From Candidatus Poribacteria bacterium (lineage in GTDB: Bacteria > Poribacteria > WGA-4E > WGA-3G), in contig CBDBFU010000031.1 of NCBI GenBank assembly GCA_965205025.1, positions 32,001 through 96,000 on the forward strand: a stretch of 64,000 nt of DNA, in the 5' to 3' direction. The translations under genes and the position numbers were made by a program. The notes beneath the pieces were generated by a model. The model was not told the origin of the DNA. It saw only the letters and a program-made list of their open reading frames with translations, and ran no database searches. Positions 19,564-21,669 of this stretch are shown piece after piece; the stretch's first letter is position 1, and each line of letters starts with the position of its first letter.

Positions 19564-21669
19564 ATGAAAGCAACTCTGGCAACTTGCAACCTTAATCAAT
19601 GGGCACTTGACTTCGATGGTAATTGTGATCGTATAATTGAATCAATTATACAAGCCAAAGAAAAAGGTGCAAGATACCGTCTTGGATCAGAACTTGAAAT
19701 AACAGGTTATTCCTGTGAAGATCATTTTCTTGAAGAGGATACGCTTCAACATAGTTGGGAATCACTTGGTAAAATTATAAGTAGTGGACATACAGATGAT
19801 ATTCTCTGTGATATCGGTATGCCTGTGATGTACCAAAGTATTCGATATAATTGCCGAGTATTCATCTGTAATGGTGAAATTCTCCTCATACGACCTAAAA
19901 TGGTATTAGCTACAGAAGGAAATTATCGTGAACCCAGATGGTTCGTTCCTTGGCAAAAAAAGTGGAAAATTGAGAACTTTCGATTACCTTCAGAATTACA
20001 AGAAATTACAAAGCAGACAACAGTTCCATTTGGGTGTGCTGTCATAGAAACACAGGACACAGTCATTGCATCTGAGACCTGTGAGGAGTTGTTTGCACCA
20101 TTCTCACCACATATTGAATTAGCTTCCAACGGAGTAGAGATTATATCGAACGGATCAGGTTCACATCACGAACTACGTAAACTTGATACACGTTTATCAT
20201 TGATTCGAAATGCTACAGAAAAATGTGGTGGTGTCTATTTATATGCAAATCAGCAGGGATGTGATGGTGGTAGACTCTACTTTGATGGATGTGCATCTAT
20301 TGCACAAAATGGACATATTCTCGCACAGGGTTCTCAGTTTTCTATTAATGAGATCGAAGTTGTCACTGCTACAGTTAATTTAGTTGATGTTAGATCCTAT
20401 CGTGGTTCACGCATGAGTGGGGCTGTTCAGACAAGTCGTGCATCTACCATACCACGCATTTTTGTAGATTTTCTAATCTCAGATACCGAAAAACGTAATG
20501 TCACTATACCAATAACACAACTCAAAATATACATACCTGAAGAAGAAATCGCCTATGGTCCAGCATGTTGGTTATGGGATTATCTAAGGAGATCGGAAGC
20601 CGCTGGATATTTCATCCCACTATCAGGTGGATCGGATAGTGGTGCTGTAGCAACTATTGTTGGATCTATGTGCCAACTCGTAGCAAAAGCTATTCTTGAT
20701 GGTGTACCCCAAGTCACACAGGATATTCAAAGAATGTTTGGGGATAAATTCTTAGAGAAAATCAAAGCAGACTTTCAGGATGTAATGCAAGCATCACAAT
20801 ATATTGCAAATCACTTATTATATACTTGTTACATGGGAACTTCAAATAGTTCACCAGATACCCGTCAACGAGCAAAACAGTTAGCAAGTGAAATTGGGAG
20901 TTATCATCTGAATATAGATATAGATTCTCTGGTAAGTAATCTTAGGAAGCTTTTTAGTAATATCACAGGAAAGACACCACAGTTTAAAACTGAAGGTGGA
21001 AGTTTAGTAGAAAATCAAGCACTTCAAAATATACAAGCACGTCTCCGTATGGTAATTAGTTATCTCTTTGCTCAAACTTTACCTTGGGTCCGAAGTAGAA
21101 AAGGAACGTTACTTGTCCTGGGTACAGGAAATGTTGATGAAGCACTACGAGGTTATTTAACAAAATATGATTGTAGTAGTGCTGACATCAATCCTATAGG
21201 TGGTATCAGTAAAACAGACCTACGTAGTTTTCTCAGATGGGCACAAGAGAATTTAGGATACCCAAGTCTTGAGAACATAATTGAAGCACCACCCACTGCT
21301 GAATTGGAACCTATTACAGAAACATATACACAAACTGATGAAGAAGACATGGGAATGACCTATGATGAGTTGAGTAGATTTGGTCAACTTCGTAAAGTTG
21401 ATAGATGTGGTCCTGTGAGTATGTTTGAGAAACTCGTTGAGGAATGGAATCATATACCCCCATCTGAAGTCGCCGAGAAGGTAAAACACTTCTTCCGAAA
21501 TTACTCTATAAATCGTCATAAAATGACGACATTAACACCCTCATACCATGCAGAATCTTATTCACCAGATGATAATAGGTTTGATCTACGTCAATTTTTA
21601 TATAATACTCGTTGGAATCGACAATTCTATAAGATTGACAAACTGGTAGAGGAGATTGAGGAGAAATGA
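19564..21669 (+). CDS. nadE: Glutamine-dependent NAD+ synthetase (eukaryote-type)
   Basis: N-terminal nitrilase domain ([16 protein letters not shown]); PP-loop [39 protein letters not shown]. Confidence 0.95.
   Translation: [701 protein letters not shown]

Follow-up and report, generated by a model that had tools for sequence, protein, structure and literature searches.

A predicted eukaryote-type NAD synthetase as the only NAD synthetase found in a Poribacteria genome

How does a bacterial chromosome come to carry a nicotinamide adenine dinucleotide (NAD) synthetase that resembles those of humans and yeast? This question is raised by a 64,000-nucleotide stretch of Candidatus Poribacteria bacterium (assembly GCA_965205025.1, contig CBDBFU010000031.1, positions 32,001 to 96,000), here called the window, in which the open reading frame (ORF) at 19564..21669 on the + strand encodes a 701-aa protein (P0001) that is a predicted glutamine-dependent NAD+ synthetase of the NADSYN1/Qns1 type. 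An earlier note, made from the letters of this DNA, had pointed to this frame and had offered two origins for it, namely a transfer from a eukaryote to a bacterium or descent within a bacterial lineage that is sister to the eukaryotic gene. The overall account towards which we lean slightly is that of a sole NADSYN1-type NAD synthetase, acquired once in the order to which the organism belongs and going back to an ancient eukaryote-to-bacterium transfer.

The ORF is intact: it starts with ATG, is translated without internal stop, and its translation contains every peptide quoted in the earlier note. Among all PDB sequences its best match is human NADSYN1 (6ofb; E 3.2e-261, 871.7 bits), aligned over residues 2-699 of the query and 5-696 of the chain, followed by the NAD synthetase of Cytophaga hutchinsonii (3ilv; E 4.7e-68, in two aligned stretches) and then by the M. 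tuberculosis enzyme (3dla; E 1.1e-22). The Cytophaga enzyme is the nearest bacterial structure, yet it stands much further from the window protein than the human enzyme does, and the eukaryote likeness stated in the note therefore holds. The description of the protein as unlike typical bacterial NadE is borne out as well, since it scores 152.6 and 129.3 bits against the bacterial NadE equivalogs NF002730 and NF010588 of NCBIfam, which have cut-offs of 473 and 479. By BLASTP, the window protein is 56-58% identical to the enzymes of five animals, 59-61% to two fungi, 53-60% to three red algae and 62% to one picoeukaryote. The named representatives of clusters at 50% identity are all eukaryotes, and its nearest Atlas clusters consist for 91-100% of Eukaryota. 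Because the gene is far nearer to eukaryotic NADSYN1 than to other bacterial NadE, the possibility that it is no closer to eukaryotes than those enzymes, which the note had entertained, falls away.

The match with human NADSYN1 and yeast Qns1 is full-length and collinear and comprises the same two domains, an N-terminal nitrilase-like glutaminase domain (aa 5-280, 19576..20403, +; PF00795, CN_hydrolase, E 4e-34) fused to a C-terminal NAD synthetase (ATP pyrophosphatase) domain (aa 336-606, 20569..21381, +; PF02540, NAD_synthase, E 4.5e-30; TIGR00552, E 4e-30). The likeness extends to the Cys-Glu-Glu-Lys (C-E-E-K) site, to the Tyr and His of tunnel constriction 1 and to the PP-loop SGGxDS, which reads SGGSDS at aa 354-359 of the window protein. 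In the human enzyme, according to passages of Chuenchor et al. 2020 (PMC6946656), the glutaminase site consists of C175, E45 and K114 plus E176, and Tyr123 and His203 (human numbering) at constriction 1 are conserved in eukaryotes, with Phe and Pro in prokaryotes. In our alignment the corresponding residues of the window protein are E43, K112, C173 and E174 for the glutaminase site and Y121 and H201 for the tunnel. Tyr and His occupy the two tunnel positions in 14/14 aligned sequences of the clade formed by Poribacteria and Chloroflexota, and Phe and Pro occupy them in 3/3 canonical NadE from other Poribacteria; the tunnel His is replaced by Tyr in four of the 13 animals and in one of the two alveolates. 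What sets the window gene apart from its human and yeast counterparts is its place on a bacterial chromosome, its overlap with a Wzi-like gene, its bacterial codon usage and the 56-58% identity to animal enzymes mentioned above. The canonical fused NadE (M. tuberculosis 3dla type; PRK02628, PRK13981) shares with it the reaction, the domain order and the catalytic E, K, C and E, but the versions found in outgroup Poribacteria are only 22-23% identical to the window protein, and they carry Phe/Pro where it carries Tyr/His.

By homology to human NADSYN1, the predicted mechanism and NAD+ synthetase activity would be as follows. The N-terminal nitrilase-type domain would hydrolyse glutamine by means of the Cys-Glu-Glu-Lys site, an internal tunnel would lead the ammonia to the PP-loop domain at the C-terminus, and this domain would adenylate nicotinic acid adenine dinucleotide (NaAD) and then amidate it to NAD+. 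The window gene is a real NAD synthetase gene of the eukaryotic type, and judged from its sequence it looks functional.

In its genome, a metagenome-type assembly of 5.66 Mb in 33 contigs with an estimated contamination of 4.3%, the window gene is the only NAD synthetase found. PF02540 has four matches there, the other three being GuaA, MnmA and a small PP-loop protein of 287 aa, and the additional canonical nadE that the earlier note had considered was not found in the genome. NadA is present, and NadD-like frames occur that score below the curated cut-off. Because it is the sole synthetase beside NadA and these NadD-like frames, the NADSYN-type enzyme appears to complete an otherwise bacterial de novo NAD pathway. 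The NadD-like matches to TIGR00482 differ in form: the one at G000:C20:203850-204339 is split over overlapping frames of 88 and 140 aa and may reflect a frameshift, and the one at G000:C12:101397-101969, also below the curated cut-off, lies in one frame of 245 aa.

The distribution of the gene was followed in 176 genomes of the phylum Poribacteria. A match was present in 157 of the 158 other genomes of the window's order (family f1 111/111, f2 11/11, f3 28/29 and f4 7/7), with identities of 62-93% among the full-length matches listed; the sole genome of the order without a match, G070, is 95% complete. The 17 genomes of other orders or classes gave weak matches only (16 genomes; E 2e-5 to 2e-11) or none (one genome), and Pfam recognised a full-length canonical NAD_synthase in all five outgroup genomes tested (E 1e-72 to 8e-80, in frames of 267-585 aa). 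Since the eukaryote-type enzyme is order-wide while other Poribacteria keep the canonical NAD_synthase, we conclude that the eukaryote-type gene replaced canonical nadE at or before the base of the window's order. The common ancestor of this one order would have acquired the gene once, with vertical inheritance thereafter; in a family-labelled gene tree, families f1, f2 and f4 each form one clade (support 99-100). The NADSYN gene is an old, vertically inherited core gene of sponge-associated Poribacteria.

The association with sponges follows from the names of the genomes concerned. Of the 80 best loci encoding close relatives, 76 are titled Candidatus or uncultured Poribacteria and four 'uncultured bacterium'. 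Nine metagenome-assembled genomes (MAGs) that carry close relatives appear as Entoporibacteria in Table 1 of PMC7883664, i.e. MSPOR6, AGPOR5, PCPOR2a, PCPOR2b, PCPOR4, PNGco_C_binSS2, SB0677_bin_25, SB0662_bin_35 and SB0675_bin_22, and the first of these has a 90% identical NADSYN copy in the same gene neighbourhood as the window. These nine names support the identification of the window's order with the sponge-associated 'Entoporibacteria', and with it the 'probable sponge symbiont' of the earlier note.

In some genomes of the order the NADSYN match comes in two pieces. At locus L183 (G134:C180:17000-22500), the glutaminase part (aa 1-303) and the synthetase part (aa 314-701) are read in separate frames some 90 bp from each other, and the break falls at the inter-domain linker; the gene may truly be divided in two, or a frameshift or an error of assembly may lie behind this. 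Another two-piece match, in G174 (L184), turned out on inspection to be a continuous gene.

Outside the Poribacteria, proteins of the same type were found under the label of a second phylum. Seven proteins bear a Chloroflexota label (Chloroflexi in two cases, otherwise Chloroflexota, Anaerolineales, Anaerolineae, Anaerolinea sp. and Ca. Promineifilaceae); where measured, their identity to the window protein is 64-66%. One of the seven is matched at 94% identity by a metagenome locus whose surroundings are bacterial, with a PknB-like kinase, an FHA protein and a NapC/NirT-type cytochrome. The Chloroflexota protein shows 59-67% identity with those of animals, fungi, red algae and the picoeukaryote, groups that are 54-64% identical among themselves.

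Phylogenetic trees were built to place these bacterial proteins among the eukaryotic ones. The main tree was calculated with IQ-TREE under LG+C20+F+G4 with posterior mean site frequencies (PMSF) on 51 rows and 702 columns, with the fused canonical NadE of other Poribacteria, the sequences at 22-23% identity, as outgroup. Myxobolus P0168, P0131, P0132 and P0134 were left out of it as long branches, and from a further tree without long eukaryotes two alveolates, P0122, P0123 and P0129 were removed in addition; Lupinus P0019 (1201 aa) is a tandem gene that was wrongly modelled and lacks exons, and it entered none of the trees, which hence contain no plant. The bacterial sequences form one clade (95/91) of seven Poribacteria, seven Chloroflexota and one sequence without organism label, with a very short stem (0.012-0.048 over this and the family-labelled tree). 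In the maximum-likelihood (ML) tree this clade is joined to the opisthokonts, and the alveolates, three unlabelled sequences and the group of red algae and picoeukaryote (94/97) fall outside of both. Without a root, the bacterial clade sits on a deep branch between the opisthokonts and an Archaeplastida-like group (split support 99) and lies inside none of the eukaryotic lineages sampled. The branch that leads to canonical NadE measures about 5 substitutions per site and is unbroken by any named bacterium. The Chloroflexota branch between family f4 and families f1-f3 of the Poribacteria, weakly (81), and the presence of two phyla in one shallow clade means that at least one transfer from bacterium to bacterium has occurred. 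A position of the bacteria beside the red algae, obtained with FastTree under LG+G, did not hold under LG+C20. P0261 and P0263, tried as outgroup, were dropped, since for both of them human 6ofb (1e-88 to 8e-94) is still a far better match than 3ilv.

With respect to the ultimate origin of the gene, an ancient eukaryote-to-bacterium transfer would have come from an early-branching or unsampled eukaryotic lineage and not from animals, and consequently not from the sponge; after that, the gene would have spread between the Poribacteria and the Chloroflexota. This direction is favoured because the ML tree nests the bacteria among the eukaryotes, though with weak support, because the bacterial clade is shallow, short-stemmed, monophyletic and patchily spread over two unrelated phyla, because within the Poribacteria the type is confined to one order, and because no named bacterium breaks the long stem. 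We infer both the direction and the date of the inter-domain transfer.

Several observations weigh against this account. The nodes that nest the bacteria among the eukaryotes are weak, with 86/76 for bacteria plus opisthokonts and 82/70 for the next node. The outgroup joins whichever ingroup branch is longest, being Myxobolus, Eimeria or the florideophyte red algae depending on the taxon set, which makes the root unreliable. When the 23 named eukaryotes were constrained together with the bacteria outside, the log-likelihood fell by 6.09 (delta lnL), and the approximately unbiased (AU) test did not reject this tree (p 0.133); a position of the bacteria as sister to all eukaryotes is thus not rejected. 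The trees comprise no named sponge, choanoflagellate, plant, amoebozoan or excavate sequences. The identities of the Chloroflexota protein would also be expected of a slowly evolving sister lineage. Finally, the tie between the window's order and the Entoporibacteria depends on the nine matching MAG names. Of the two origins offered in the earlier note, both survive, the nesting on which the choice turns having the supports just given.

The second of these origins, which we regard as a possible but doubtful reading, holds that the type arose in bacteria and that the clade of Poribacteria and Chloroflexota is either the extant sister group of eukaryotic NADSYN1 or related to its donor; the gene would have passed to the ancestor of eukaryotes from a relative of these bacteria, and to the Poribacteria from another bacterium. 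Besides the unrejected monophyly of eukaryotes, it is favoured by the unrooted position of the bacterial clade, as the branch between opisthokonts and the Archaeplastida-like group is a plausible root of the eukaryotes. Moreover, the bacterial sequences are the most consensus-like, a profile of 21 eukaryote-side sequences scoring them at about 1138-1169 bits, like vertebrates, and a red-algal query, once past its own group, reaches the bacteria before animals, fungi and correctly modelled plants. A bacterial source would also agree with passages of De Ingeniis et al. 2012 (PMC3376133), in which the eukaryotic branch is derived from the bacterial fused-NadE branch. Against it, the ML tree does nest the bacteria, though weakly, and a bacterial ancestry would lead one to look for a deep and paraphyletic assemblage, whereas the bacterial clade is shallow and monophyletic; only one order of the Poribacteria has the type, canonical NadE being retained elsewhere in the phylum, and the long stem is not divided by any named bacterial sequence. 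The fuller statement that this clade is the nearest surviving prokaryotic relative, that the ancestor of eukaryotes obtained NADSYN1 from such a bacterium and that the clade has kept a near-ancestral sequence is slightly more doubtful still.

A recent or host-derived transfer, in which the symbiont would have captured a gene of its sponge or of another animal, is very improbable. The place of the organism among sponge-associated Poribacteria and the 56-58% identity to animals could speak for such a capture, and the earlier note had hinted at the sponge host as donor. This hint does not stand up: animals and opisthokonts (100/100 each) exclude the bacterial clade, and a tree constrained to unite bacteria with animals is rejected (delta lnL 40.5, AU p 0.0105) in a set that holds no sponge sequence. 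The identity to animals is furthermore no higher than that to fungi, red algae and the picoeukaryote, and the gene has native codon usage, is order-wide, tracks the families and occurs in Chloroflexota as well.

Composition and context agree with long residence in the bacterial genome. The NADSYN gene has a GC content of 0.380 and a GC content at third codon positions (GC3) of 0.240, compared to means of 0.367 and 0.244 over 33 ORFs of the window, and its codon usage correlates with that of the other ORFs at 0.963, the ORF mean being 0.921. Single contigs of 26,094 and 17,477 bases, from two runs, span positions 18800-22400 with 0 differences and no joints, though they may be the assembly's own source; among further read runs over the region, X3 gave only fragments at 95-99% identity and X8 none. 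In 80 Poribacteria loci that were compared, the adjoining genes are conserved in 58 to 60, and many loci belong to records of 4-6.7 Mb that bear the title 'chromosome'. Read continuity, which the earlier note had regarded as a point to be settled, is hence in order, with conserved flanks across loci and spanning contigs in two runs, and the assembly is not chimeric at this place. That eukaryotic host DNA was mis-assembled or mis-binned into a bacterial contig has next to no probability, for the metagenome-type assembly with its 33 contigs and 4.3% estimated contamination is the one thing that would allow it, and it is countered by the chromosome records and conserved flanks, the 4-bp overlap with a bacterial gene, the native GC3 and codon usage and the spanning contigs with the reserve just made. 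The NADSYN gene is neither a recent import nor an assembly artefact.

A literature search yielded no published description of a NAD synthetase of this kind in Poribacteria, a search on NADSYN1, bacteria and horizontal gene transfer yielded nothing on this gene, and the source databases label these proteins merely 'NAD(+) synthase'. A bacterial clade in two phyla with the eukaryotic subtype, 56-67% identical to animals, fungi and algae, thus appears to be undescribed. Neither the enzyme family nor its chemistry is new, and NADSYN as found here is an added member with an unusual cross-domain history. It clearly exemplifies how, at the base of the sponge-associated Poribacteria, an essential cofactor gene has been exchanged for one typical of another domain. 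The same lineage provides a parallel: according to passages of PMC7883664, an archaeal-type pantoate kinase and phosphopantothenate synthetase occur in Entoporibacteria and are absent in Pelagiporibacteria. In both cases a cofactor enzyme is typical of another domain and the free-living Pelagiporibacteria keep the bacterial version, but the former enzymes belong to the coenzyme A and not to the NAD pathway and have an archaeal and not a eukaryote-type source; NAD synthetase is not mentioned in the passages of that paper drawn on here. In view of this parallel, the replacement may mark a metabolic remodelling on the move into sponges. As these are by far the closest prokaryotic sequences, the finding also bears on the origin of the eukaryotic NAD synthetase, and its interest would rise if the clade were indeed sister or donor to the eukaryotic gene. 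Gene flow from host to symbiont, the most striking reading, is not shown by this gene. In practice, the intron-free bacterial enzyme lends itself to the study of eukaryote-type NAD synthetase and should express easily.

Downstream, the stop codon TGA of the NADSYN gene (21667-21669) and the start codon ATG of the next gene (21666-21668) share the sequence ATGA (21666..21669, +; within GAGAAATGAATT), as had been noticed earlier. This next gene is a Wzi-like capsule-assembly gene (21666..23306, +; PF14052, Caps_assemb_Wzi, E 2.4e-21), which adjoins NADSYN in 60/80 loci, and it is followed by an SLT lytic transglycosylase (23321..24010, +; PF01464, E 3.2e-24) present in 53/80 loci. The gene upstream (18183..19496, +) encodes 437 aa, has no Pfam or NCBIfam match and adjoins NADSYN in 58/80 loci at 74-94% identity; it is the best conserved gene of the neighbourhood, its identity exceeding that of NADSYN in most loci, and it has the appearance of a core gene peculiar to this lineage. 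Further upstream, in the stretch covered by 16559-18178 (+) and 15275-16605 (+), lies the gene of a TolB-like beta-propeller protein, recognised well under the family cut-offs and found upstream in 51/80 loci, which is preceded by two ORFs without family match.

In 19 of the 80 loci, where NADSYN identity is 65-68%, none of the conserved neighbours is present, and the gene therefore sits elsewhere in those families. In family f4 (L160, G027:C324) the surroundings of NADSYN differ from those in the window's family, with trigger factor about 6 kb away, and the f4 NADSYN protein is 70% identical to the Chloroflexota version and 64% to that of the window. Locus L160, with a GC content of 0.41 and diderm-type neighbours, had been considered as a third bacterial phylum. 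This was rejected in favour of Poribacteria of family f4, because its trigger factor shares 87% identity with the one of G027, a genome in which trigger factor and NADSYN are found on one contig.

A second group of bacteria next to the red algae had been suspected in P0381 and P0383, whose cluster members lie on contigs that reach 303 kb and about 2.13 Mb, and was likewise rejected: the related loci L114 and L124 are flanked by genes for 26S proteasome RPN1, WW, JmjC, MORN/filamin and TIG proteins. On account of these eukaryotic neighbours the group was treated as compact picoeukaryotes, and our guess is that they are green algae. Among the eukaryotic models, P0376 (EukProt Galdieria, 1088 aa) has additional CTP_transf_like (PF01467, NMNAT-type) and ribosomal L6 (PF00347) domains, which may be either a fusion of gene models or a real NAD synthetase-NMNAT fusion. 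The mollusc and hemichordate models P0430, P0447, P0461 and P0424 are 881-953 aa long, one of them with zf-RanBP (PF00641), and these extensions of invertebrate NADSYN1 are missing from the bacterial and the vertebrate proteins.

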